DNA from: Nitrosopumilus sp.
Lineage (GTDB): Archaea > Thermoproteota > Nitrososphaeria > Nitrososphaerales > Nitrosopumilaceae
Direction of reading: 5' to 3'
Length of the DNA: 64,000 nucleotides
Assembly (NCBI GenBank): GCA_965224195.1
Contig: OZ245040.1
Span: 1,056,001 to 1,120,000 of the forward strand
The notes beneath the pieces were generated by a model that saw nothing but the letters and a program-made list of their open reading frames with translations, was not told the DNA's origin and made no database searches. Each line of letters opens with the position of its first letter. Position 1 is the stretch's first letter. Positions 5,744-48,990 of the stretch are shown here, piece by piece. Position numbers and translations under genes: made by a program.

Positions 5744-6394
5744 TTGTTAGCTATTTTTGATGTCGAGGGAGTTTTGTATGATGAAGAATATCTCCCTATT
5801 CTTGCAGAAAAACTCAACAAAGAAGCTGAAATTTGGGAAATTACAAAACAAGGAATTCAAGGAAAAATTAACTGGGAAGAAGGATTGCGAACTAGAGTTG
5901 CATCTTTAAAGGGTCTTGATGAAAAAACTTGTCAAGAAGTGTCTGATGCATTACCTATCATGACTGGTGCAAAAGAGGCATGTAGAGCATTAAAAGCAGC
6001 AGGATGGAAAATCATGGCAGTATCTGGTGGTTTTTCCTTGATGATGCACAGATTAAAAAAAGAATTGGATCTTGATTATGTTTTTTCAAATGAATTAATT
6101 TTCAAAGATGGTAAACTAGACGGTGTTACAATTAACGTTGATTCTGATAAATCAAAATCTGCAAAAATAAAAATTGAAGAATGGGGTGAGAAAAAAGAAG
6201 ACATAATTTGTGTCGTAGATGGTGCAAATGATATAAAATTATTTGATGTTTGTGGATTGGGAATTGCATATCGTGCTCAAGATATTGTAAAAGACTTGGC
6301 TACTACAACTTTGGAAGAAAAAGATCTCTCTAAAATTATTGATATTATCAACAAACACTATAAACTTGAATTAAAAGCTGCAACCCCTGCATAA
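5744..6394 (+). CDS. serB: Phosphoserine phosphatase (HAD family)
   Basis: FDVEGVL motif I, VSGGF, DGANDI. Confidence 0.85.
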   Translation: MLAIFDVEGVLYDEEYLPILAEKLNKEAEIWEITKQGIQGKINWEEGLRTRVASLKGLDEKTCQEVSDALPIMTGAKEACRALKAAGWKIMAVSGGFSLMMHRLKKELDLDYVFSNELIFKDGKLDGVTINVDSDKSKSAKIKIEEWGEKKEDIICVVDGANDIKLFDVCGLGIAYRAQDIVKDLATTTLEEKDLSKIIDIINKHYKLELKAATPA

Positions 6395-6428
6395 ACAATT
6401 TTTTAGTCCTCTACTTGAGATACACTAC

Positions 6429-7154
6429 TTGCAAATTATCCCTATTCATGTTGAAAAAGAGATCGAACCATCTGATGATATCTCTGATATTATTCTAAAA
6501 TCTGAAAAATTAAACGATGGAGACATTCTGGTAATCGCACAAAAAATAATCTCTAAACAAGAAGGTCGATTGATTGATTTGTCAACTGTGACTCCTTCTT
6601 TGTTGGCTGATGGTATTGGTTCTAAATATCAAAAGGATCCTAAAATAATTGAATTGATTTTATCTGAGTCAAAACAAATTGTAAGAATGAAAAATGGAAT
6701 TTTGATAGTTGAAACCAATCAAGGTTTTATTTGTGCAAATGCTGGAATTGACGAAAGTAACATCAAAGAGGGATATGCAACTTTATTACCTGTAAATTCT
6801 GATACTTCTGCACAAAGAATTAGAAAGAAAATATTAGAGCAATCAAACAAAAATGTGGCAGTAATAATTTCTGATACTTTTGGTCGACCTTTTAGAATGG
6901 GGCAAACTAATCATGCAATTGGAGTGTCTGGATTAAATCCAATTTTAGATTATCAGGGCACTTTGGATTCTTTTAATAAAATTTTACGAGTTACTGAAAT
7001 TGCTATTGCCGATGAACTTACATCTGCATCTGAATTAGTTATGGGCAAATCTTTGAAATGCCCATTTGCAATAATTCGTGACTATTCATTTAAGGTTGAA
7101 GACCATACAATTGATGAATTAATTCGTCCTGAACATGAAGACCTTTTTAGATAA
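6429..7154 (+). CDS. cofE: Coenzyme F420-0:L-glutamate ligase
   Basis: KIISKQEGR, CANAGIDESN, DTFGRPFRMG motifs. Confidence 0.92.
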   Translation: MQIIPIHVEKEIEPSDDISDIILKSEKLNDGDILVIAQKIISKQEGRLIDLSTVTPSLLADGIGSKYQKDPKIIELILSESKQIVRMKNGILIVETNQGFICANAGIDESNIKEGYATLLPVNSDTSAQRIRKKILEQSNKNVAVIISDTFGRPFRMGQTNHAIGVSGLNPILDYQGTLDSFNKILRVTEIAIADELTSASELVMGKSLKCPFAIIRDYSFKVEDHTIDELIRPEHEDLFR

Positions 7155-7270
7155 TATTTTTTAAAATTTCATTTTTTAGTAAAATAGGACAAGCTAAACT
7201 CGATGAGCTTGCTGTATAGCACAATCTATGTTGATACAGTTCATATAACGAATTAAATCTCTATTCTGTA

Positions 7271-8071
7271 TTGTCACGTGCACTAAATGAAATTATAATT
7301 AACAAACAAGGCGTTCATGATCACTTTTCAACTGTTGCCTCAAAGTACAAAAATATACGAACCCTTGACACAAAACCTATCGTACATATCAAAAATCAGA
7401 TAAATAAAAAATCCAAAATCAATATGGCTGATGTTGGTTGCGGTGATGGGCGATATTCAATAGAGTTTTTGAAACAATTTGAAGACCAATGCTACTTGCA
7501 TTGTATTGATTACAACGAAAACATGTTAAAATCATTACAGAATCACCTTACAGAGCAAAACATTACAAACTTTTGTACAAGGCAGGGTGATGCAAATAGA
7601 CTACCATTAGATAATGATTCGATGGACTGCATTGTCACTTTTAATGCAATACATCACTTTGATGTTCCAAAATTTCTCTCTGAATCGCTAAGAGTACTTA
7701 ACGAAAATGGACATCTATTCATCTATACCCGATTAAGGAGTCAAAATTCTAGAAATATCTGGGGAAAACACTTTCCATCATTTGCAGAAACTGAAACTCG
7801 TCTGTATGAAATAGAGGAATTAAAGCGACACATCTCAGAGGCAGATATGAAAATCCACTCTACCAAAGTGTTTGAGTATTCTAGAACATCCAATCTAGAT
7901 AGACTAGTCCACCAAGCAGAAAATAATCATTATTCTACATTTGCACTATATGATGAAAGTGCATTCGATAGATCTCTGATAATATTCAAACAAAACATCA
8001 AAAATACTTTTGATGATTTAGAGCAAATCAAATGGATTGATGAGAATATTTTGATAGAAATTCGAAAATAA
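7271..8071 (+). CDS. Class I SAM-dependent methyltransferase
   Basis: DVGCGDG motif I; GDANRLPL; AIHHF. Confidence 0.85.
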   Translation: MSRALNEIIINKQGVHDHFSTVASKYKNIRTLDTKPIVHIKNQINKKSKINMADVGCGDGRYSIEFLKQFEDQCYLHCIDYNENMLKSLQNHLTEQNITNFCTRQGDANRLPLDNDSMDCIVTFNAIHHFDVPKFLSESLRVLNENGHLFIYTRLRSQNSRNIWGKHFPSFAETETRLYEIEELKRHISEADMKIHSTKVFEYSRTSNLDRLVHQAENNHYSTFALYDESAFDRSLIIFKQNIKNTFDDLEQIKWIDENILIEIRK

Positions 8072-35780: not shown

Positions 35781-35980
35781 ATAAACACCACCTTGTGCAT
35801 AATATCTTTTGTAAAAAATTCGGATTTGGATTCTGGAAAGGCCTCTACATATCCGGCAATAATTTTATCCAATTCTGATTTTATCTCCTGTTTGTTTTTT
35901 CCAACAACAATTATCTCTGGTTTGTCGTAGCATTGAGCTAGCAATCCCTGCTCACTTTTTACCAGTTTTACTTGCAAATT
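35777..35980 (-). CDS. HicB-like antitoxin domain (start uncertain)
   Basis: VKSEQGLLAQCYDKPEIIVVGKNKQEIKSEL resembles the HicB fold pattern. Confidence 0.45.
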   Translation of the reverse strand, partial: NLQVKLVKSEQGLLAQCYDKPEIIVVGKNKQEIKSELDKIIAGYVEAFPESKSEFFTKDIMHKVVFI

Positions 35981-36449
35981 ACCCAAGATATAGGTATAAT
36001 AAATATGATATATATAAAATGTTATTATCCGGATTGATGCTGTCCTGCATACCACACTCCTTGTATCTGAGGATTTTGGAATGTGCAAGCATTACTTTTA
36101 CTTCTTTTGTAGTATATGCTCGCAAGCTAGGTGTCTTTTGCCTCTGTGGTAACATCTTGTAGATTATTTCCCAATTAAGATGAACTCGATTCATCACAAA
36201 GAAGTGTTTTATTCCTCCAAGCTTTGACGGTATGGAGTTAGGGTTTGCAGTCTGCCTCAAATACAGAACATAGTTTTCAAGCATTATCTGTAGATCATTG
36301 ATGAAAATTTCCAATAACTTCTTTTCATTAAATAATCCTGTGAATTTTCTGAATTGAGTAAGGTTTGATGTATAATTCTTTTTGGTATGCTTTGACTTGA
36401 TTGATTCTTCAAACAAGATCATGCTTCTTTGTTTTGTAAGCAATGTCAA
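35979..36449 (-). pseudogene. Truncated tyrosine recombinase (N-terminal half), paralog of 46288-47217
   Basis: LLTKQRS..LFEESIKSK.TKKNYT...NPNSIPSK...SLRAYTTKEVK shared; catalytic domain missing. Confidence 0.85.
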
Positions 36450-36677
36450 ACATTACATTCTTGTAATCCTTGGCAAAATTTTCTTTGCTTATGTTTGCAT
36501 ATAGCAATATAGAATATGGAGTTTTAATCCTCAATCTCTTGTTTTCTGCTGGTACCACCGTAACGATATTTTCATTTCTTAGTGTCAGATGATTCCTTTC
36601 TTTTAAGTCATGGTGAATCTTTGTTTTTGCAGGTATCTTATCATCTGGTTGCCTGATATTCTTGGAAACTTTGACAT
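36450..36677 (-). pseudogene. HicA toxin pseudogene, paralog of 47310-47546
   Basis: MSKFPRISGNQMIRYL then stop/frameshift, continuing HLTL...VVPA. Confidence 0.8.
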
Positions 36678-36889
36678 TATTGTTTGATAATAAGCATGTT
36701 AAATTCAGTTAAATTTCCACTCTCTTCGGCTGCAAGCTCTACTGCTTCCTTTATATTTTCCATCATATCTCCGAATGTATCGCTTTCTGATACTGCATGT
36801 AGTTCGTCACATCTGCCAACAAATCCGCCATCTTCAAGATCCTTGGTTATTACTACTGTGTAGGTCTTTTTTTGTAGGGTTGTACTCGT
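36677..36889 (-). pseudogene. HicB antitoxin paralog with ACG in place of the start codon
   Basis: TSTTLQKKTYTVVITKDLEDGGFVGRCDELHA...ENIKEAVELA matches the HicB at 47546-47752. Confidence 0.8.
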
Positions 36890-38175
36890 AACGTAGATAG
36901 TCTCAAAAGCGTTAAAAATATTGCTAGTCTTATGCGTATTTTTGTAAGTAAAAAGAGATTATTGATTGCATCAACTCCTGACAGGATTGACGCAATCTTT
37001 TGCTGTTCCTTAATGTTTTTTGTATATGGTAGTTTTGTATTGGCAATTTCATCTTGATTTATTGCATCATAAGTAGTTCCTTGTGAATAAACTAAAAATC
37101 TTTTTTTACTGTGATTGACAAGGTAGTAACAATATAATAGATCGCATTCTATTGGATTTAACGCTGCTACTCCTCTACCTAAGCAACATTTCTTTCTTGT
37201 TAAGTTAATTTCTCCAACAGGAGCCCTTACAGAAAATAGAATCGAATTATCATTTGTAGTTTTTTTAGGATCAGTACACCAAATCATTGGATTTGGATAT
37301 GTTGCTCCAAAATCTGTTACTCCTTGATAGAATGGCAATCCTTTTTCTTCTTTATTATAACTTTCAGATGGTGGAGATTGACCCATTGTAATTTGTAGTA
37401 TCTTTGCAGTAGGTTTGATCTCCCATTCTTCTGGAATCTCATCATATTTTCCAAATAATCCCCTTACCCTCTTGAATTTTTTATGCCCTATCCCCCTGGT
37501 CAGAAGCTCCTGCATTAGACCTTTCTTCAATAGCTCAGCTTTGTTTACAACTTCTTGTGTACATTCAATTAATGCGTCAACTCTAGAGAGGATTGACGCA
37601 ATCTTTTGCTGTTCATGAATTAGAGGCAAGAGAATCAAAATTTGTTTTAGGTTTTTTTTGGATAGTCCATAAACTGAAACTCCTGTAACTCTTGCAATAA
37701 TTTGTTTCGTGACAAAATTCATTGATGTCAGATATGCTCGAAAATCAACCGAAGTATTCCCTTTTACATCTCGGATTGCAATCGTATGTAACCCTGAGAC
37801 TAGTTTCTTTCCATCAACATTTTTCAACAATATGCTTGTGCCAGAACCTTCATGATCCTCTGATGCATCTGCTATGACAAGGTCTCCTTCTTTTAACAAC
37901 GAGATATTTTTTACTTTAATTTTATCAATGAAGGGAATTTCTTCATTTTTGCAATCAAGAAAAATTTTCCATTTTGTATGCATGTCTCCATAATGGATAT
38001 AGTTCACATCACCTTTGTCTTCAAGATCGTTACGTGAGTTTGTAGCTGTGGAAAGGAATTCAAACACTTCCTCAAATGTTTTGGTCTTCCAATCTTCAGG
38101 AATCTCTATCTCTTTTCCAAACAACCATTTAACAAGCTTGTATCCTTTTTGCGGTGGCGTGCAACCATCCTTCAA
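36853..38175 (-). CDS. hsdS: Type I RM specificity subunit, two TRDs but lacking the C-terminal conserved helix (silent allele)
   Basis: EIPEDW/EIPEEW and two EQQKIASILS; HsdS homology ends at ...SGVDA (36967). Confidence 0.88.
   Translation of the reverse strand: MKDGCTPPQKGYKLVKWLFGKEIEIPEDWKTKTFEEVFEFLSTATNSRNDLEDKGDVNYIHYGDMHTKWKIFLDCKNEEIPFIDKIKVKNISLLKEGDLVIADASEDHEGSGTSILLKNVDGKKLVSGLHTIAIRDVKGNTSVDFRAYLTSMNFVTKQIIARVTGVSVYGLSKKNLKQILILLPLIHEQQKIASILSRVDALIECTQEVVNKAELLKKGLMQELLTRGIGHKKFKRVRGLFGKYDEIPEEWEIKPTAKILQITMGQSPPSESYNKEEKGLPFYQGVTDFGATYPNPMIWCTDPKKTTNDNSILFSVRAPVGEINLTRKKCCLGRGVAALNPIECDLLYCYYLVNHSKKRFLVYSQGTTYDAINQDEIANTKLPYTKNIKEQQKIASILSGVDAINNLFLLTKIRIRLAIFLTLLRLSTLRVQPYKKRPTQ
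36967..37008 (-). repeat. 42-bp terminal hsdS repeat (inverted to 45870-45911, direct to 47827-47869)
   Basis: gaacagcaaaagattgcgtcaatcctgtcaggagttgaYgca. Confidence 0.92.
37448..37614 (-). repeat. 167-bp inverted repeat identical to 45234-45400
   Basis: Base-by-base comparison of the two hsdS central regions. Confidence 0.93.
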
Positions 38176-38278
38176 TGTCTGATTTCAAATGTTATTCCAT
38201 ATTAAGGCATAAACCATCATTTACAAACCCCGATAAATACAATACATTAAAAAACTCTGAAACACATATCAGTCTAAA

Positions 38279-41200
38279 ATGAATTTTGATGTAGGCAAAG
38301 GTCCTGAAGCAACAGAATCAGAACTTCCAGCACTAGAGCAGCTAGTTGCAATGGGATACCAATACATCACACAGTCAGAACTCAACAAAACACGTACAGA
38401 TTATCGTGATGTATTACTCTATGATAGACTTGAGCAAGCAATTAGACGCTTAAATCCTGATTTTGATGATGATGGGATTCATGATGCAGTAGCTCAAATC
38501 GGTGAGGATAGATTCCCTTACAATTTAGATCCTGTTGAAACAAATGAGAAAATCAGGGCAAAACTAATCGGACTATCAAAGTCTGGTGGATTAGAACCCG
38601 TTGTTGTAACTCAAAATTTTGGTGAAGGGCCAGTTCAAAAGGTGGCAAAAATATTTGATCTTGATAATCCACAAAACAATGACTTTGTAGTAACAAACCA
38701 ATTCCAACTAGAAGGATTAAAGAATCCAATCTTTCCCGATGTAACAATTTTTGTAAATGGCATCCCTCTAGTTCAAATTGAATGCAAATCCCCTGCAATA
38801 CCTGACCCAATTGGTGAGGCAGTGGATAGAAAAAATTTCTACAAGTATCAGCAAAGAGGTAACGGGTATGAAAAACTATTTTTCTACAATCACTGTCTAA
38901 TTGCAGCTTGTGGAACTTTGGCTAGAGTTGGAACACTAAATTCTAATTTAAACTATTATTCTAGATGGGCAAAGCCATATCCGTTATCTGTAGATGATGT
39001 AAAACAACTATGCAATGGCAAGGCAAGAGAGCAAGAAATTCTCATTGCAGGATTACTTGCAAAAGAAAATCTGCTAAACCACATGCAAAATTTTGTACTC
39101 TATGATACAATTAACCACAATCGTGTCAAAATGATTGCAAAACATCAGCAATACAAAGCAGTATCTGAATGTGTGAATCGTTTAAAATTAGGCGAGGACA
39201 TCAAAGACAAGGGCGGAATCATTTGGCACACACAAGGTTCAGGTAAATCATTTTCCATGTTATGGTTTGCATCGCAGCTAATGTACAAGTTTGGCAATCC
39301 TCCAATAATGATAGTTACAGACAGAAAACAACTAGACAAACAAATTCATGACACTTTTAAAAAATGTGGATTTCCCAGTCCAATTAGAGCAAAAAATGGG
39401 AAGCACTTGGCAGAACTATTGAAAAACCCTAAAGGCAAAACCATCATGGCAATTATTGACAAGTTTGCAACAGAGCATGGGGCACATACTGATGAGAAGG
39501 TAATATGCCTAGTTGATGAGGCACACAGAAGTCAGTACAAGATAAATGCCGAACAAATGCGAGTATCCATGCCTAATGCCGTGTTTTATGGCTTTACAGG
39601 CACGCCAATTGACAAAAATGACAAGAGTACACCTCGTGTCTTTGGACCAATCATTGACAAGTATGGATTCCGAGAATCCCAAGAAGATGGTGCAACATTG
39701 CCAATCAGGTATCATGGAAGACTATCTGAATTGTTTGTTGAAGGCGGAGAAACAATTGATGAACTCTTTGAGCGAATTATTGGCAGTGATCCTACAGTAA
39801 ATGAAGAACTCAAAGACAAACTCAAAAAACAATGTGCCACAAAGGGAAAGATTGCAGAAGCTCCATCAAGAATCAAACGAATATCCTTGGATTTAGTCAA
39901 ACATTACACTACTCACATTGAACCAAACGGATACAAGGCAATGCTTGTTGCACCATCAAGGGAAGCCGCTGTACTTTACAAAAAAAATTTAGATGAACTA
40001 AACGCGCCACCATCAAAAATTATCATGACTTCTGATTTGGGTGAGAAAGGAAAAGATGAGCAAAGTTGGGATGAATATCGCCTCTCCTCTGAACAAAGAG
40101 AACAAGAAGCAGAACTATTCAAGAGTGCAGATAATCCGACCAAGATCCTAATTGTAGTTGACATGTTGCTTGTAGGATATGATGCACCAATTTGTCAGGT
40201 ATTATATCTTGATAAGGGAATTAGAGAACACAGCTTACTTCAAGCAATTGCCAGAGTAAACAGACCGCATGATGAACCAAAGACACATGGATTAATTGTA
40301 GATTATTCAGGTGTCACCAAAGAATTACAAACAGCACTTGAAATGTTTGAGAAAGATGACATTGAAGGGGCATTGGATCCACTAAATGAATTTCTACAGT
40401 TACTAAAAGATAGACATGCTGATGCAATTGTCTTTTTCAAAGGTATTGACAGAGAAGACAATGATGCAATCATAGAATACTTTGAACCATTAGATCTACG
40501 TGATGAGTTTGAGCAAGCATTCAAGCTGTTTTCAAGGGCATTGGATTCTGTAATGCCTGATAAAGAAGCAGACCCATACATTGAGGATTTCAAGTTCCTA
40601 AGTAAGGCAAGGCAGATAATTCGCACCTATTATGAGGGTGTCAAGCCCAGTACACGCCCATATGCCAAAAAAATCCAGAAATTAATCGATGATCATATTC
40701 GTTCACTATGTATTTCTGAATTAATTAATCCAATGGAGATTACATATGAGAATTTCTTGGCCTTTGTCAAAAAGAAGGTAAAAAGTGAGAAAGCACAAGC
40801 TGCCTTGATCAAAAACAAGGCAATCCAGGTAATTGAAGAACTAAGGGGGAACAATCCTGCATATTATGAGAAACTCTGGGAGAGACTACAAAAAATTATT
40901 GAAGAGGAAGAAAAAAGACGCAGAGAAAATGCACAATACTTTATACATCAAGAAGTATATGCAGAAGTCTATGACAAAGCACTAGCAGAAGAAAAAGAAA
41001 GGCAAAAAGTATTCGGTGATTATGAAGCAACCCAATTTGAATTTGCATTGTATGGAGAATTTAATGAAATAAAAGGCAGTCGTGAGGAATCAATTGAATT
41101 AACAAAAAAGATTCACTCTCAATTGGTTAAAGAAACTGAAATTGTCGGATGGAGAACAAAAAACAGTGTTGAGAAAAACATGAAGACTATACTATATGAT

Positions 41201-41284
41201 ACACTTAGTGTTGCAGGATTTGAAGATGAAAAACTCTCCAAACTTTCAGAGAAGATACTAACATTGGCAAAGAACAGATTATGA
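38279..41284 (+). CDS. hsdR: Type I restriction endonuclease subunit R
   Basis: PD..IFVNGIPL..IECK nuclease motif, HTQGSGKS, DEAH, FTGTP, QAIARVNR. Confidence 0.95.
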   Translation: MNFDVGKGPEATESELPALEQLVAMGYQYITQSELNKTRTDYRDVLLYDRLEQAIRRLNPDFDDDGIHDAVAQIGEDRFPYNLDPVETNEKIRAKLIGLSKSGGLEPVVVTQNFGEGPVQKVAKIFDLDNPQNNDFVVTNQFQLEGLKNPIFPDVTIFVNGIPLVQIECKSPAIPDPIGEAVDRKNFYKYQQRGNGYEKLFFYNHCLIAACGTLARVGTLNSNLNYYSRWAKPYPLSVDDVKQLCNGKAREQEILIAGLLAKENLLNHMQNFVLYDTINHNRVKMIAKHQQYKAVSECVNRLKLGEDIKDKGGIIWHTQGSGKSFSMLWFASQLMYKFGNPPIMIVTDRKQLDKQIHDTFKKCGFPSPIRAKNGKHLAELLKNPKGKTIMAIIDKFATEHGAHTDEKVICLVDEAHRSQYKINAEQMRVSMPNAVFYGFTGTPIDKNDKSTPRVFGPIIDKYGFRESQEDGATLPIRYHGRLSELFVEGGETIDELFERIIGSDPTVNEELKDKLKKQCATKGKIAEAPSRIKRISLDLVKHYTTHIEPNGYKAMLVAPSREAAVLYKKNLDELNAPPSKIIMTSDLGEKGKDEQSWDEYRLSSEQREQEAELFKSADNPTKILIVVDMLLVGYDAPICQVLYLDKGIREHSLLQAIARVNRPHDEPKTHGLIVDYSGVTKELQTALEMFEKDDIEGALDPLNEFLQLLKDRHADAIVFFKGIDREDNDAIIEYFEPLDLRDEFEQAFKLFSRALDSVMPDKEADPYIEDFKFLSKARQIIRTYYEGVKPSTRPYAKKIQKLIDDHIRSLCISELINPMEITYENFLAFVKKKVKSEKAQAALIKNKAIQVIEELRGNNPAYYEKLWERLQKIIEEEEKRRRENAQYFIHQEVYAEVYDKALAEEKERQKVFGDYEATQFEFALYGEFNEIKGSREESIELTKKIHSQLVKETEIVGWRTKNSVEKNMKTILYDTLSVAGFEDEKLSKLSEKILTLAKNRL

Positions 41285-41823
41285 TCAGTAAACTTCGCTA
41301 TGGCAATAGTGTCATAGAATACCAAATTATTAAAAGTAAGAGAAGAAAGACTTCGGAAATTAGAGTGGATGAAAACGGAGTAGAGATTCATACTCCAATT
41401 ACAAAAAAAGATTCAGAGATTCAAGAGATTGTTAACACCAAAAAACAATGGATATTCAAAAAACAATTAGAGTTTACAGACAGAAATAAAAGACAATTCA
41501 AAACTACAACAAAAACTCTTGAATATCTTGAGAAAAGATCTTGGAAGCTGGCAGAGAAGATTGGTGTTAAACCAAAGAAGATAGTAGTAAAAAATCTCAA
41601 ATCAAGATGGGGAAGTGCTGGAAAAACAGGAACAATTACGCTTAATCAGGCGTTAACCAGAATGCCTCCGAGAATAATCGACTATGTGATAATTCATGAA
41701 TTATGTCATTTGAAAATTAAAGGACATTCAAGTAGATTTTGGAGTATTCTTTACTCATACAACAAAGACTATCAAAAAAACATTCTCTGGTTAGAAAATA
41801 ATTTCAAGGATTTGTTGGGATGA
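41281..41823 (+). CDS. M48/YgjP-like zinc metalloprotein
   Basis: KSRWGS, YVIIHELCHL, HSSRFW; typical hsdR neighbour. Confidence 0.88.
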   Translation: MISKLRYGNSVIEYQIIKSKRRKTSEIRVDENGVEIHTPITKKDSEIQEIVNTKKQWIFKKQLEFTDRNKRQFKTTTKTLEYLEKRSWKLAEKIGVKPKKIVVKNLKSRWGSAGKTGTITLNQALTRMPPRIIDYVIIHELCHLKIKGHSSRFWSILYSYNKDYQKNILWLENNFKDLLG

Positions 41824-42772: not shown

Positions 42773-44257
42773 TTGTCTGAAAAAGTTACACTTGAGATGC
42801 TAAAATCACACCTGTGGAAGGCATCAGACATTCTCAGAGGCAGTCTTGATGCATCAGAGTATCGAGAACCAGTAATGACCATTCTATTCCTAAAGCGACT
42901 AAATGATAGATTCGAGGAAAATGTTGAGAAACTGATTGCAGATGGAAAATCCGAAAAGGAAGCAAATCAAGACTTTAGACATGACTTTTTTGTTCCAAAA
43001 GAAGCAAGATGGGATAAACTATCTGCAGTAAGAAGCAGAGTTGGAGAAAAAATTGACAAGATTTGCAAACTAATTGAAAAATCAAATGAGAAGCTAGAAG
43101 GTGTTCTGACTAATACAAAGTATTCTGATCCTAGAAAGTATCCTGATGACAATTTAGCAAACTTGATTTCCCACTTTAATTCCCCACGATTAAGAAATTC
43201 CGATTTGGAGAAAGAAGATATTTTCGGGGATGCATATGAGTATCTCTTAGAGCAGTTTGCAGACGCAACAAAGAAGAAAGGTGGAGAGTTTTTTACACCA
43301 CGTGAAGTTGTAAATTTGCTTGTCAATTTGGTAGACCCCAAAGAAGGAATGAGAGTTTCAGACCCCACATGTGGCTCTGGTGGTATGTTGATTGTATCAC
43401 GTCATTACGTGGAGCAAAACAAGGGAAATCCACGTGACTTGGTACTAGATGGTCAGGAATCAAACTATGGAAACTTGGCAATGTGCAAAATGAACATGGT
43501 ATTGCATGGAATTTCAGACTTTACAATAGAGTATGGCGATACACTATCCAATCCTAGACAAGTAGATGGTGGAAAACTCAAAACATATGACAAGGTACTT
43601 GCAAATTTCCCATTCTCAATGGATTGGGATAACAACGGTGCAGAAAAAGATCCTTACAATCGATTCAGATTTGGCATTCCTCCTGCAAAAGGCAAGGCAG
43701 ATTTTGCATTTATTCAGCACATGTATTCGCAATTAAATGAAAAAGGTCAAGCTGCAATCGTCTGTTCTCAAGGCGTTTTGTTTAGGAGTTCAGTTGAGAG
43801 TAAAATTCGTGAAGGACTAATTGCAGAGGATGTAATTGAGGCAATAATTGCGATTCCTTCAAATTTATTCTTTGGAACAGGTATTCCTGCATGTGTTTTG
43901 ATATTAAACAAAAACAAACCAGCAAAAAGAAAGGAAAAAATAATTTTCATTTATGGTGCTAAAGATTACTTGGATGGTAAAAATAGAAACAAGCTTCGTG
44001 ATGAAGACATTACAAAAATAGTCAAGGCATTTTCTAATTTCAAAGATGTTGATAGATATTGCCATGTTGCAGATATTGATGAACTAAAAGAAAATGAGTT
44101 TAACCTTAATGTTCCAAGATATGTAGACATATCAGAACCTGAGGAAGAGATTGATATTCAGAATGCTTGGGATGAACTCAAAGAGACCAATACAGAACAA
44201 GAAAAACTAGAAAAGCAAGTAAAATCAGATTTGATGGAATTGGGAATAAATCTCTGA
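42773..44257 (+). CDS. hsdM: Type I RM DNA methyltransferase subunit M
   Basis: GDAYEYLL, GEFFTP, DPTCGSGG, ANFPF, FNLNVPRYV. Confidence 0.95.
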   Translation: MSEKVTLEMLKSHLWKASDILRGSLDASEYREPVMTILFLKRLNDRFEENVEKLIADGKSEKEANQDFRHDFFVPKEARWDKLSAVRSRVGEKIDKICKLIEKSNEKLEGVLTNTKYSDPRKYPDDNLANLISHFNSPRLRNSDLEKEDIFGDAYEYLLEQFADATKKKGGEFFTPREVVNLLVNLVDPKEGMRVSDPTCGSGGMLIVSRHYVEQNKGNPRDLVLDGQESNYGNLAMCKMNMVLHGISDFTIEYGDTLSNPRQVDGGKLKTYDKVLANFPFSMDWDNNGAEKDPYNRFRFGIPPAKGKADFAFIQHMYSQLNEKGQAAIVCSQGVLFRSSVESKIREGLIAEDVIEAIIAIPSNLFFGTGIPACVLILNKNKPAKRKEKIIFIYGAKDYLDGKNRNKLRDEDITKIVKAFSNFKDVDRYCHVADIDELKENEFNLNVPRYVDISEPEEEIDIQNAWDELKETNTEQEKLEKQVKSDLMELGINL

Positions 44258-44317
44258 TTTGTAATATTTGTTCTACAAATTAGAAAATGTTTTGTGCAGT
44301 TATGTGTATACTATCAC

Positions 44318-44704
44318 ATGGAGATGATTATTCTAGTAGGCATTGCAGGAAGTGGAAAAACTACATGGTGTACAAAGTATTTGCCACACCATACAAGAAT
44401 ATCACTGGATGACATAAAAAATCATAACAGAAAACTGGAAGATAAGATGATAATATCTGAACTGGAAAAAGAAAATAATATTGTTATAGATGACACAAAT
44501 CTTACACGAGACATACGTGAAAGACACATTACAATTGCTAGAGAGTATTGTACTTTAGTAAATGCAATTTATTTTTGCATTGACATACAAAAAACATATG
44601 TGCAAAATTTCAAGCGTGAAAAAAAGATACCATGCTATGTTTTAGATCGCCAGAAAAAACAGCTTGAGATACCTCGTGAAGAAGAAGGTTTTGGGTTTGT
44701 CTAG
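44318..44704 (+). CDS. P-loop kinase (AAA_33 / polynucleotide kinase-like)
   Basis: LVGIAGSGKTT, RISLD, VIDDTN. Confidence 0.8.
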   Translation: MEMIILVGIAGSGKTTWCTKYLPHHTRISLDDIKNHNRKLEDKMIISELEKENNIVIDDTNLTRDIRERHITIAREYCTLVNAIYFCIDIQKTYVQNFKREKKIPCYVLDRQKKQLEIPREEEGFGFV

Positions 44705-44765: not shown

Positions 44766-46013
44766 GTGAGATGTCGCTTGATAATGAAAAAACCAAAAAA
44801 AGGTTGCAAACTAGTCAAGGGATTATTTGGAAAGGAGATCGAGATTCCAGAAGAATGGAAAGTTGAAAAATTCAATGATAGAATTAAACTAGAATATGGC
44901 TCAAGTTTAACAGCAGAACAACGAGATAATGCAGGTAATCCAGTATATGATTCAGGTGGAATTATTGGATTTCATTCTAAACCTATTGTGAATAATATAG
45001 GAATTGTTGTAGCAAGAAAAGGTTCTATTGGAAATATTTTCTATGAAAAACAAGATTTCTTTCCAATAGATACTGTATATTATATTACAAAAAATGAAAC
45101 GACATTCAATTTACTTTTTCTTTTTTATTACCTAACAAATATGAAATTAGAAAATCTTGCAATAGTTACCTCTAAACCTGGAATTAGCAGAAATGAAATT
45201 TACTCACTTAAAATAATATTTCCTCTACTTCCCGAACAGCAAAAGATTGCGTCAATCCTCTCTAGAGTTGACGCATTAATTGAATGTACACAAGAAGTTG
45301 TAAACAAAGCTGAGCTATTGAAGAAAGGTCTAATGCAGGAGCTTCTGACCAGGGGGATAGGGCATAAAAAATTCAAGAGGGTAAGGGGATTATTTGGAAA
45401 GGAGATCGAGATTCCAGAAGAATGGGAGATTAGAAAGTTAGATGGAATAGGAGAGTTAATTGGTGGTGGCACACCTGATTCTACAAATCTAGAGTATTGG
45501 AATGGAGAAATATTATGGGCAGTTCCCACAGATATTACAAAATTACAAACTAATCTGATTGAAAATACTGAAAGAAAGATTACAAAAAAAGGATTGGATA
45601 ACAGTTCTGCTAAATTATTACCTATCGGTACAGTTTTGATTACTTCTAGAGCTACCATTGGTAAATGTGCAATAACTACAAAATCCATTACAACCAATCA
45701 GGGATTTCAGAATATTATCTGTAATAAAGATCAGAGTAATTTATTCATATTTTATGTAATGAAACATAATCAAAATGTATTAGTGAGATTATCTTATGGA
45801 ACAACATTTTTAGAAATCAGCAAAAAAGATATGCGGAAAATGCTAGTATGTTTGCCGTATTCTAGTTACGAACAGCAAAAGATTGCGTCAATCCTGTCAG
45901 GAGTTGACGCATACATACAGAAGAACCAAGAATACAAGGAAAAGTTGGAGAGGCTTAAAAAAGGCCTTATGCAAAAACTGCTTACAGGTCAGATCCGTGT
46001 AAAAATCAAATAA
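44766..46013 (+). CDS. hsdS: Type I RM specificity subunit, complete allele
   Basis: Two TRDs, both conserved helices, ends LKKGLMQKLLTGQIRV. Confidence 0.93.
   Translation: MRCRLIMKKPKKGCKLVKGLFGKEIEIPEEWKVEKFNDRIKLEYGSSLTAEQRDNAGNPVYDSGGIIGFHSKPIVNNIGIVVARKGSIGNIFYEKQDFFPIDTVYYITKNETTFNLLFLFYYLTNMKLENLAIVTSKPGISRNEIYSLKIIFPLLPEQQKIASILSRVDALIECTQEVVNKAELLKKGLMQELLTRGIGHKKFKRVRGLFGKEIEIPEEWEIRKLDGIGELIGGGTPDSTNLEYWNGEILWAVPTDITKLQTNLIENTERKITKKGLDNSSAKLLPIGTVLITSRATIGKCAITTKSITTNQGFQNIICNKDQSNLFIFYVMKHNQNVLVRLSYGTTFLEISKKDMRKMLVCLPYSSYEQQKIASILSGVDAYIQKNQEYKEKLERLKKGLMQKLLTGQIRVKIK
44819..45425 (+). repeat. 40-bp direct repeat in front of each TRD (44819-44858 and 45386-45425)
   Basis: gggattatttggaaaggagatcgagattccagaagaatgg occurs twice. 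Confidence 0.9.
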
Positions 46014-46287: not shown

Positions 46288-47217
46288 TTATCTGATCTCT
46301 ATTTTATACATTATTTTCTTAAATTCGGTAAATAACTCCTTCAATGTTGGTGTAAAGTAAATTCCATCAAGGCCATTTTTGTGACCCATTAGTTTCTCTG
46401 CAATGTTATAGTTTATGCTATTGTCCAGTTTTAGTATGGTATTATATCGCTTTCTAAATCCATGATCCGCTTGTACATCAAAACGATTGTCATACTTTAG
46501 TCTTGTAATGTTGCTTTTTTGTATTGTTCTGTATATTACAGAGCGAACTCCACTCCATCCTATCTGCTTAGGGCGAAATTTGCATGTAGCAAATATGGGT
46601 GTGTCTTTGTAAAATATCTCACCCTTACTTTTTCGATAGTCATGATATGCATTTACTGCTTTTGTTGCTTGTGGTGTGAGAAATGCCCAATATTCTTCTA
46701 TATCTCCAGCATAGAGCAGTACTGCTGTACAGCCATAAGGCATTTTCATCATATGTCTTATTGACAAATCATGATCAAAGATGCCTATCCTGGCACCAGT
46801 AACTGCAAAGAAATGAATTAACGCCTTGTTTCTAGGATTTGTTGCGCTATGTATTAGTTCTTTTACTTCTTTTGTCGTATATGCTCGCAAGCTTTGTGTC
46901 TTTTGTTTTTGTGGGAACATCTTTGTGATTATATTCCAATTGAGGCTGATCTCATTCATAACGCAAAAATGCTTTATGCCATGAAATTTTGACGGTATTG
47001 AGTTAGGATTTGTGGCGCGTTTTAGTTCAATCAAGTAATTTTCTAGCTTGTATTGTAATTCCAAATTAGGCATAGTAACTAATTGATTTTGATGTGAAAG
47101 ATCTGCAAATTTTAGAAATGAATCAAGATGTGCGGTATAATTCTTTTTTGTATATTTTGATTTGATTGATTCTTCAAATAATAGAGAACTACGTTGTTTA
47201 GTTAGTAAAATACTCAT
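46288..47217 (-). CDS. Tyrosine recombinase/integrase, apparently intact
   Basis: TGAR, HGFR, LMGH...Y catalytic residues. Confidence 0.92.
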   Translation of the reverse strand: MSILLTKQRSSLLFEESIKSKYTKKNYTAHLDSFLKFADLSHQNQLVTMPNLELQYKLENYLIELKRATNPNSIPSKFHGIKHFCVMNEISLNWNIITKMFPQKQKTQSLRAYTTKEVKELIHSATNPRNKALIHFFAVTGARIGIFDHDLSIRHMMKMPYGCTAVLLYAGDIEEYWAFLTPQATKAVNAYHDYRKSKGEIFYKDTPIFATCKFRPKQIGWSGVRSVIYRTIQKSNITRLKYDNRFDVQADHGFRKRYNTILKLDNSINYNIAEKLMGHKNGLDGIYFTPTLKELFTEFKKIMYKIEIR

Positions 47218-47309: not shown

Positions 47310-47546
47310 TTATTTTACATTTCCTTTGTTGTGATCACCTACAAATTCATCCCTGGTTATTTCTACAGCTTTTAATATTTGTAAAAACAAACCTGGTTTT
47401 ATCATATTTTGGCCTGCAGGAATAGTTACACGTATACTGATATTTGCTAATGTAACATGACTGCCTTTTCTATTTTTTACAAAGAATCCCTTTTTAATTA
47501 AATATTTTATCATCTGGTTGCCTGATACTTTTGGAAGTTTTGTCAT
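47310..47546 (-). CDS. hicA: HicA-family toxin
   Basis: KLPKVSG...GF....KGSHVTL...VTIP. Confidence 0.88.
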   Translation of the reverse strand: MTKLPKVSGNQMIKYLIKKGFFVKNRKGSHVTLANISIRVTIPAGQNMIKPGLFLQILKAVEITRDEFVGDHNKGNVK

Positions 47547-47752
47547 TACTTTAGTACAATAAGCATATTAAATTCATCTTGGCTGCTTTCAGATGCAAGC
47601 TCTACAGCTTCTTTGATATTTTCCATTATCTCGCCATACGTTTCGCCTTGAGAATAGGCATGTAATTCCTCACATGTGCCAACAAACCCGCCATCTTCTA
47701 CGTCTGCTGTAACTATAATGGTGTAAGTTTTTTTTTCCAGTGTAGTACTCAT
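47546..47752 (-). CDS. hicB: HicB-family antitoxin
   Basis: EDGGFVGTCEEL..SQGET..E...NIKEAVEL; likely start MSTTLEK. Confidence 0.88.
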   Translation of the reverse strand: MSTTLEKKTYTIIVTADVEDGGFVGTCEELHAYSQGETYGEIMENIKEAVELASESSQDEFNMLIVLK

Positions 47753-47826
47753 TGTATACACATTGTGCACATATGCAAATATATTAAATATACTGTTGAT
47801 TTTATGCATAATTTCAAATATGTTAT

Positions 47827-47977
47827 TGCATCAACTCCTGTCAAGGATTGACGCAATCTTTTGCTGTTCATAGATTAGAGGCAAGAGAATCAAAATTTGT
47901 TTTAGGTTTTTTTTGGATAGTCCATAAACTGAAACTCCTGTAACTCTTGCAACAATTTGTTTCGTGACAAAATTCAT
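47827..47977 (-). pseudogene. Third hsdS fragment: end of a TRD plus terminal repeat
   Basis: 47870-47977 nearly identical to 37615-37722; 47827-47869 is a variant terminal repeat. Confidence 0.9.
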
Positions 47978-48195
47978 AGACGTGATGGAAAACATTTCAG
48001 ATTCTCTTGATGATAGTATGATGGAGGAAACTACATCAGTTTATACAGACAAGGGATTGACAGTGTAGCCATCAGAGATCATCTGAAAAACAAAAGCATT
48101 GTTCCATGCATTCCAAAAAGAGCTTTCAAGAAAAACAACAGTAAAAAATACAGTCACAAAAACTACAACAGGGCGAGATTTGTAGCGGAGCGGAT
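47968..48195 (+). mobile_element. IS5-family (IS427-like) transposase internal fragment
   Basis: KFIDVMENISD...YTDKG.D...IRDHLKNK...PCIP...RFVAER, homologous to 49965-50190. Confidence 0.75.
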
Positions 48196-48990
48196 GATGT
48201 TGAATGCGTCTTTGAATGTCTCAGAGAGAGGCTCAGCTGAAATCTTTCTGTCCCTGTATGATTTTTGGCCTTCTTTAGAACCATAAAACTCTGCAAGTTT
48301 GATGCTTTCTGGCAGCGTATGTGGATACTGTTTGGCTGGAATGATCAATCGGGAATGTTTCTTGTTGGCTGAATCATACAGTGAATCATCATCATATGTA
48401 GGATCTGCCAGAATGTTTTGGAATAATCCTGCAAGCGGTTCTGTTATTGCATTGAATTTTTGAGAATCATGAATATTTGCAGTGCTAACATCAGAGAACA
48501 GCGGAACTACCAGTTTTCCAGTAGAGCCATCAGTATCAGTTCCTGCAACTGGAAGACGGTTGCTTCTGATGCCTGGTTTGTGCCAGGCAGGGCCTGCAGT
48601 TTTCAGCACGGAGATGTCAACTGGTGCAGATGTGTAATCGGCTAGTCTCTCTGAGACAGACAGACTGCCCATGGTGCTGATAATTTCAGATGTTGGAAGA
48701 TTCTGAAGTCTTCTGCCGACTGTTCTTCTGTTTGGGATCTGTTGCACCCTGCAAGCCTTGAGCAGTATGTAATCATTGCACTTGATTGAAAAAAATAACG
48801 AGACGTGTCGTTACTTGGAACTCTCATCCTAGACCTTGTGATGAACAATTGTATCACAAGAACAGTTGAACAGGCATACGGCCTGCCAGGCCTAACCATA
48901 TCCCCAACAAATACAATACTCCAGCCGGTTCTTTTGCGTCTTCGATAAAATAGATGAGTAGGCATGATTTTGATGGTGTTGCGTGGCGGT
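48196..48990 (-). mobile_element. Degraded DDE transposase, family uncertain
   Basis: GRPY, IPNRRTVGRRL, TANIHDS, ADPTYD motifs over frameshifted ORFs; higher GC. Confidence 0.7.

Follow-up and report, generated by a model that had tools for sequence, protein, structure and literature searches.

A putative dif-like recombination site within the hsdS genes of a recombinase-linked Type I restriction-modification locus in Nitrosopumilus

Introduction

It is established for bacteria that hsdS loci can invert and be linked to a tyrosine recombinase (PMC7096588, PMC7672463, PMC7394358, PMC9881135). The present analysis deals with a Type I restriction-modification (R-M) locus located in 64,000 nucleotides of DNA from the ammonia-oxidizing archaeon Nitrosopumilus sp. 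(contig OZ245040.1, positions 1,056,001–1,120,000; this whole stretch is further called the window) and, in particular, with a short inverted DNA element, the dyad, which recurs inside the hsdS genes of this locus next to a tyrosine recombinase gene. Similarly to the cod/ivr locus of Streptococcus pneumoniae with its recombinase PsrA/CreX, and to bacterial 'epigenetic invertons' in general, the window combines several hsdS genes carrying in-gene inverted repeats with a recombinase belonging to the locus, and in both cases distinct repeats are present for distinct exchange points (PMC7096588, PMC7672463, PMC7394358). In contrast to the cod/ivr-type loci, the host is an ammonia-oxidizing archaeon instead of a host-associated bacterium, the recombinase belongs to a separate XerA-like clade and is accompanied by a HicAB pair, and the silent gene lacks the 3' helix, while silent genes of the cod/ivr type lack the 5' end. 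Furthermore, the window repeats hold a clear dif-like dyad, whereas the in vitro study of PsrA, in that part of it which was available, described footprints over a 15-bp repeat plus flanks; the words 'palindrom', 'core' and 'spacer' were not found in this part.

In the hsd loci of Mycoplasma pulmonis, two full-length inverted hsdS genes flank the enzyme genes, and the recombinase HvsR inverts at vip and hrs sites. There are two site classes per hsdS gene, and the enzyme genes are carried in the inversion, as is proposed here. The M. pulmonis recombinase also inverts surface-antigen genes; nothing of that kind was seen at the window locus.

According to the portion available of PMC2958812, the dif site comprises 28 bp, with 11-bp imperfect inverted arms and a 6-bp spacer, and Thaumarchaea are without xerA. 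The window site would share the 11-6-11 layout with the Xer/dif systems (bacterial XerCD, archaeal XerA), and the closest solved relatives of its enzyme are XerA proteins, but it is present in five copies inside genes and does not represent a chromosome-dimer system. As regards archaea, one systematic survey of hsdS inversions deals with bacterial species only, the term 'archaea' was not found in a second one, and in a third one, archaeal species having several hsdS genes receive just a passing mention; the term 'restriction' was not found in a review of archaeal tyrosine recombinases (each of these four sources being available in part). A literature search combining Nitrosopumilus with restriction-modification, inversion and recombinase had no Nitrosopumilus paper among the 15 matches listed.

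Although much work has been devoted to programmed hsdS inversion in bacterial pathogens, the core site of the recombinase within the repeats is poorly defined. In the window, the 28–30 bp element ATTGCRTCAATYCT-N7-GTTGAYGCA, located in the codons for I-A-S-I-L-x-x-V-D-A, is likely to be the core recombination site of the adjacent XerA-like recombinase, judging from sequence comparison. The dyad is regarded here as a conserved putative protein-binding DNA element specific to recombinase-linked hsdS genes, a designation supported by comparison.

Dyad sites in the window

Two hsdS genes, one complete and one incomplete, are mutually inverted and flank hsdR and hsdM, with the recombinase gene lying 275 bp downstream of the complete hsdS. 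The genes and sites on which the analysis is based are as follows.

36853..38175, minus strand: second (left) hsdS copy, domains C and D; N-terminus and central region, without C-terminal helix
36967..36994, minus strand: S0, terminal site of the left hsdS, inverted partner of S3; right arm TTGATGCA, spacer TCCTGTCAGGAG
37573..37600, minus strand: S1, central site of the left hsdS, inverted partner of S2 within a 212-nt repeat; spacer TCCTCTCTAGAG
44766..46013, plus strand: complete hsdS, domains A and B and C-terminal helix (45912-46013); PF01420 in two stretches
45248..45275, plus strand: S2, central site of the complete hsdS, codons IASILSRVDA; spacer TCCTCTCTAGAG
45884..45911, plus strand: S3, terminal site of the complete hsdS, codons IASILSGVDA directly upstream of the C-terminal helix; spacer TCCTGTCAGGAG
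46288..47217, minus strand: tyrosine recombinase, 309 aa, two-domain Xer/Cre type, family-specific clade
47827..47855, minus strand: S4, aberrant site; N13 middle TCCTTGACAGGAG, out of frame and leading to a stop codon

An earlier sequence-only reading of this DNA had reported five dyad copies with a 12-nt spacer (13 nt in the copy at 47827) and two spacer classes. A search of the window with the pattern TGCGTCAA-N(10-15)-TTGAYGCA recovered all five copies of the dyad (TGCGTCAA-N12-TTGAYGCA), and none was present elsewhere in the 2.07 Mb host genome (33.6% G+C), of which the window is a part. The five sites correspond to eight strand-matches, against an expected mean of 0.00 in 100 dinucleotide shuffles. 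The two classes were confirmed as well, with TCCTCTCTAGAG at the central and TCCTGTCAGGAG at the terminal sites (36967 and 45884) and the 47827 copy as a 13-nt variant.

The dyad sits in the codons for IASIL..VDA at the end of each HsdS target-recognition domain. In the coding-strand orientation, all five copies have 26 identical nt in common, from GAACAG... through the left arm and TCCT; in the central copies, the spacer is followed by the central conserved region. The central sites belong to inverted repeat I1 between the two hsdS genes (37418-37629 / 45219-45430; 212 nt, 95%) and the terminal sites to inverted repeat I2 (42 nt, 98%), in which the homology of the partners stops at the last right-arm base. 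In the left hsdS, the C-terminal helix is replaced after ...GVDA by an unrelated sequence, the decayed cassette. The claim that coding homology ends at the dyad in the silent copies was correct, the downstream homology stopping at the last base of the right arm in both of them. The extension of the dyad to ATTGCGTCAA/TTGATGCAAT at the same copies, also claimed, is not general: the extended arms are imperfect (9/10 complementary), and among the relatives an AT continuation was present in only 5 of 11 terminal sites having a non-helix flank.

On its left side, the S4 copy matches the end of domain C (37589-37728) at 96% identity, and on its right side it abuts the hicB-like gene; the site is probably dead or mis-joined. 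The sequence TGACA in its middle is the reverse complement of the TGTCA of a normal terminal spacer and is accompanied by one additional base, and the copy joins a central-type left flank (domain C end) to a terminal-type right flank. It may be a scar of a failed or illegitimate central-by-terminal exchange.

Recombinase-linked and unlinked hsdS genes

Reading of the codons demonstrated that the peptide I-A-S-I...V-D-A alone dictates five of the eight arm pairs when Ser is encoded by TCN. Therefore, the dyad is less improbable than the shuffle test implies, and a comparative test is the meaningful one. The same circumstance favors the rival explanation which survives best, that the dyad is a by-product of the HsdS helix peptide and its copies are alike through gene conversion or homologous recombination, without being a recombinase site.

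Each site was scored by the number of complementary arm pairs out of eight. The linked set consisted of 38 sites of the window's hsdS family from 15 recombinase-linked loci of the same archaeal family. The broad control included 78 loci with HsdS relatives from bacteria and archaea. An iterative recombinase profile, which was built from the clade of the window enzyme and may have passed over very distant tyrosine recombinases or serine invertases, found a clade recombinase in only two of these loci, L037 and L038 (65–68% identity); both contained the dyad and were set aside as linked. The linked sites scored 8/8 in 19 cases, 7/8 in 13, 6/8 in five and 5/8 in one, whereas in the unlinked broad control (149 sites, 76 loci), where the usual motif is KIAEILSTVDE, 8/8 was never reached, 7/8 occurred in five cases and 132 sites scored four or less. 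A search within the same archaeal family covered 401 genomes, of which 63 were matched by the recombinase (E <= 1e-60, distant paralogues included) and 55 by HsdS. Same-family loci without the recombinase, as judged by an iterative profile of the same kind (28 sites, 14 loci), scored only 1–6, while two loci with cassette remnants scored 7–8. An equal frequency of the dyad in unlinked hsdS genes, named beforehand as the outcome that would speak against a crossover site, was not found, with none of the 149 broad-control and none of the 28 same-family sites at 8/8. The peptide itself was also characteristic of the linked genes, which speaks against the by-product explanation: alanine occupied residue 10 in 38/38 linked, 0/28 unlinked same-family and 5/149 broad-control sites.

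A metagenome scan with a 46-nt stretch (the end of domain B plus the left half of S3) gave no exact matches. The degenerate 30-nt dyad was matched four times, twice in hsdS genes on contigs of 1.0–1.4 kb, too short to show a recombinase, and twice in other contexts.

Constraint at the DNA level and the two spacer classes

Conservation per position was calculated over 35 distinct linked sites, using the numbering of the 30-bp element. Third or otherwise free arm positions were nearly fixed: position 3 was T in 34/35, position 9 was A in 35/35, position 24 was T in 34/35 and position 30 was A in 32/35; position 6 was a purine and position 13, the first base of the Leu codon, was C in all 35. Genome codon usage gave a very different background (GCG 3.4% of Ala, TCA 35.5%, GTT 39.8%, Leu TTR, i.e., TTA+TTG, 53.6%): the rare GCG was present at 18 of the 36 linked sites having Ala at residue 2, and Leu TTR was used in none of the linked sites, both arguing against a mere by-product of the peptide. 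In the unlinked genes, GCT, GCC, TCC, TCT, GTA and TTA were freely used for the same residues.

Third positions varied between the loci in the center of the element (15 and 18, with 0.22 bits at position 18) and in the flanking codons. The conserved blocks are positions 3–13 and 20–30, with six free but matched positions between them, a pattern to which a partition into 11-bp arms and a 6-bp overlap is better suited than the 8-bp arms and 12-bp spacer of the original description. The middle 6 bp differed between central and terminal sites in 10 of the 10 loci having both classes. For the identical peptide IASILSGVDA (24 sites), Leu was encoded by CTT in the five central sites and by CTG (18) or CTA (1) in the 19 terminal ones; in the second hsdS family, the codon of residue 5 ended in C in 15/15 central and in T in 15/15 terminal sites. 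Among 24 pairs of inverted partners from both hsdS families, 23 differences were found, 15 of which fell on the arm wobble positions 3, 6, 27 and 30 and a single one on positions 14–19, which were thus identical in 23 of the 24 pairs, despite position 18 being the most variable between loci. Gene conversion should homogenize arms and middle alike, and the terminal repeat measures only 42 nt; both points speak against conversion as the source of the similarity. Altogether, the scores, the synonymous constraint and the matched middles give comparative support to the earlier claim that coding DNA doubles as the recombinase site.

Several observations weigh against the dyad being a core recombination site, in addition to the peptide effect on the arm pairs. 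The central inverted repeat, with its 212 nt and 95% identity, is long enough for homologous recombination; Halanaerobium hsdS genes with the same IAS..VDA peptide reach up to 7/8 without any inverted copy (these loci were counted as unlinked, having an integrase-like ORF of 182–195 aa at a distance of 5–9 kb and no inverted hsdS); all linked loci come from one lineage and share ancestry, meaning that the sites are not independent events; and the terminal pair of locus L126 differs inside the proposed overlap. Furthermore, locus L146 (hsdS 6002-7297) has 8/8 and 7/8 dyads with no clade recombinase within the 20 kb fetched, and it may be a locus that lost the cassette. Of 38 stretches with the clade recombinase, hsdS adjoined it in 23 and a dyad remnant in two, while 13 had neither hsdS nor dyad, several of these being short contigs or pseudogenes. 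The outer arm positions of the second hsdS family show a complementarity of only 5–8/8, mostly 6–7. Finally, the data from four sequencing runs are assembled contigs which end at the repeats and are unable to show orientation. The long central repeat, the Halanaerobium sites and the common ancestry all favor the by-product explanation; set against the linked-specific alanine, the codon bias and the partners matching in the middle and differing in the arm wobble, it nevertheless appears unlikely.

The recombinase

The predicted fold of the recombinase (pLDDT 85.9) is the two-domain fold of simple tyrosine recombinases, with XerA, Cre, XerH and an integron integrase-DNA complex (PDB 2a3v) as the top Foldseek matches (probability 1.00), and it is without an arm-binding domain, as in the enzymes using simple symmetric core sites. 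At the sequence level, a profile of 16 homologues (36–100% identity) recovered no solved relatives other than XerA (E 5e-6). Residues R143, H252, R255, H279 and Y287 were invariant among these homologues; from the family motif, they are presumably the catalytic Arg, His-x-x-Arg, His/Trp and Tyr. The single-sequence Pfam match was under the cut-off (19.6 vs 27.1 bits). The enzyme did not group with the dimer-resolving XerA/dif systems: the NCBIfam XerA model gave 49 bits against a cut-off of 220, the sites are five in number and located in genes, and the recombinase is present in a minority of the family genomes. It represents a separate XerA-like clade and is not an orthologue of the chromosome-dimer resolvase.

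Proposed mechanism

The locus is probably a recombinase-linked inverting hsdS switch, an archaeal version of the switch type already known in bacteria. Its site would be dif-like, with the 11-bp inverted arms TGCRTCAATYC / TGCRTCAACTC (other strand) around a 6-bp overlap, a partition which we infer. Two recombinase monomers would bind the arms, and the strand exchange would take place in the overlap. With TCTCTA at the central and TGTCAG at the terminal sites of the window, the overlap would limit exchange to central-central and terminal-terminal pairs. Recombination between S1 and S2 would invert 7.6 kb including hsdR, hsdM and both first domains, thus swapping the first domains, while recombination between S0 and S3 would invert 8.9 kb and determine which of the genes obtains the sole C-terminal helix. 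Together, the two inversions could produce up to four complete specificity genes with the domain combinations A-B, C-B, C-D and A-D.

The sequence-only reading had already proposed that the spacers separate central from terminal exchanges, and this part agrees with the middles differing between the classes in all ten loci and matching between the partners. The reason which it gave, namely that the spacers are needed to keep the reading frame, was wrong: all sites in the window share one codon phase, and thus any exchange preserves the frame. The central and terminal sites of one gene are direct repeats, 606–636 bp apart, and what the distinct overlaps would block is central-by-terminal exchange, by which a target-recognition domain would be deleted or mis-built genes would arise.

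A wider scheme can be offered only tentatively, as possible but short of probable. A clade of XerA-like invertases in ammonia-oxidizing archaea would have reshaped HsdS by its 11-6-11 site, with Ser3, Gly7 and Ala10 serving the DNA arms; the recombinase, HicAB and the sole C-terminal helix would form an invertible 'tail-donor' cassette; one level of inversion would pick the recognition domains and the second would decide which gene is completed; and two unrelated hsdS families would have been colonized, with the same geometry imposed on both.

At 30 bp, the site is compact, conserved and amenable to testing, its overlap can be identified, its enzyme is small, with two domains, and natural 'spacer-swap' variants exist across genera. 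If the core-site interpretation is true, it would mean phase variation of epigenetic or defence functions in abundant marine and soil ammonia oxidizers, and a recombination signal would clearly constrain a protein at synonymous as well as non-synonymous positions; the enzyme and its site could also make a new orthogonal recombinase/site pair.

Related cassettes and possible alternative roles of the dyad

The recombinase gene of the window forms a cassette together with a HicA/HicB-like pair, and a second, decayed copy of this cassette sits left of the minus-strand hsdS. The respective features are listed below.

35979..36934, minus strand: decayed second cassette copy; N-terminal 122 residues of the recombinase (62% identity) plus hicA/hicB remnants
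47310..47546, minus strand: HicA-type toxin gene
47546..47809, minus strand: putative HicB partner, without Pfam match, named by its position and the conserved pairing with hicA in relatives
47844..47983, minus strand: hsdS fragment of 140 nt (end of domain C), adjoining S4

The hicA/hicB-like pair (47310-47809 and 36594-36934) lies between the recombinase and the silent terminal dyad, an order recurrent in many relatives. Such a toxin-antitoxin pair might stabilize the invertible cassette which contains it.

The commoner layout in the relatives consists of a helix-less hsdS, dyad, hicB, hicA and recombinase, followed on the opposite strand by a helix, a dyad and a complete hsdS; it was seen in L124, L126 and L128 and, for the second hsdS family, in L034 and L122. 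In this layout, the cassette itself would be the invertible segment donating the helix. The genome of the window has a second Type I R-M locus, L034 (C1:507719-518459), whose hsdS belongs to a different family with the motif KIESIF..IDA; its gene order is hsdR, hsdS, a 383-aa gene, recombinase (67% identity), hicA, hicB, inverted hsdS and hsdM. The KIESIF..IDA family, comprising L034 and nine further loci, has the arms TGAATCAATCT and TGCATCAATCT in the same geometry as the window sites. Another locus of the same genome, L033 (C1:1945282-1947207), contains a recombinase pseudogene (84% identity, one stop codon) which adjoins a half-size hsdS; the dyad of this hsdS is perfect with both wobble positions changed (TGCATCAA...TTGATGCA). 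In L146, a distant 443-aa tyrosine recombinase was observed 7 kb away. An alternative candidate for the site, TGAACCAA-N12-TTGATGAA downstream of the recombinase, with copies in four loci (L025:11086, L120:10671, L123:10649 and L127:9283), was rejected, being only 5/8 self-complementary and located at the start of a distant hicA-like gene.

The cassettes give rise to a second rival explanation, in which a mobile recombinase-hicAB cassette inserts into hsdS using the dyad for attachment, and the homology breaks at the silent copies are insertion junctions. It agrees with the presence of two cassette copies in the window, both of them adjacent to a terminal dyad, with the hicB-hicA-recombinase modules of L115 and L133, which have no hsdS nearby, and with L035 (61-2048), where a degenerate dyad (TGTATCAA...TTGACGCA) connects a hicB flank directly to a C-terminal helix (AYMQ...) and a recombinase comes next on the same strand. 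However, the dyads on either side of the cassette have inverted orientation and lie in two different hsdS genes instead of being direct repeats splitting one gene, the central sites carry the dyad without an adjoining cassette, and the L115 and L133 modules themselves have no dyad within two mismatches, which makes a pure attachment function more doubtful still than a by-product of the peptide. An attachment role is also compatible with inversion, and one enzyme and site could do both. The junction in L035 joins right arm to right arm, which is what recombination of two oppositely aligned sites should produce.

A DNA cruciform or messenger RNA hairpin affecting transcription, translation or RNA stability is highly improbable: although the sites are 7–8/8 self-complementary and the terminal spacer adds an inner TCCTG/CAGGA repeat, this inner complementarity is missing from most central classes, and the sole variable arm pair, positions 6/27, does not covary (G-C 12, G-T 6, A-C 11, A-T 9; Fisher p 0.52, n=38). 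Each arm holds the consensus TGCRTCAA independently, and the absence of covariation points to protein half-sites. A compensatory change of GCG to GCA with GAC to GAT, initially considered for locus 3 (1.946 Mb), was dropped on account of the same lack of covariation over the 38 sites.

Contigs of the sequencing runs

A run search gave three sequencing runs containing most of the stretch searched for. The contig ends coincide with the starts of the 42-nt and longer repeats, which, in our reading, is expected for a 31-mer graph. The contig joints 37008>37564, 45284>45870 and 44861>45870 have sides of 25–37 letters with unknown letters between them and were not used as evidence. The contigs over domains D and C (36979-38188) had a depth of 94 and 78.5 in run X1, compared to approximately 110–125 in the rest of the locus, and of 259 and 274 in run X2, compared to approximately 345–425, contig depth being a weak measure; a variant contig with six changed letters at 38125-38151 accounted for about one quarter to one third of the depth. 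This pattern over the left hsdS may reflect strain heterogeneity.

Other genes of the locus

The Type I gene set is complete, with hsdR, hsdM and hsdS all above the Pfam cut-off. The remaining genes between the two hsdS copies are the following.

38279..41284, plus strand: hsdR, Pfam match
41281..41823, plus strand: YgjP-like metallopeptidase gene, Pfam match
42773..44257, plus strand: hsdM, Pfam match
44294..44704, plus strand: small AAA_33 / polynucleotide-kinase-like gene, 136 aa, between hsdM and hsdS

A counterpart of the 136-aa AAA_33 gene (76% identity) was found at the equivalent place in L143. Directly after the truncated hsdS fragment, fragments of a DDE transposase are present at 48163-48965, and this insertion sequence may have truncated the remainder of a third hsdS gene.

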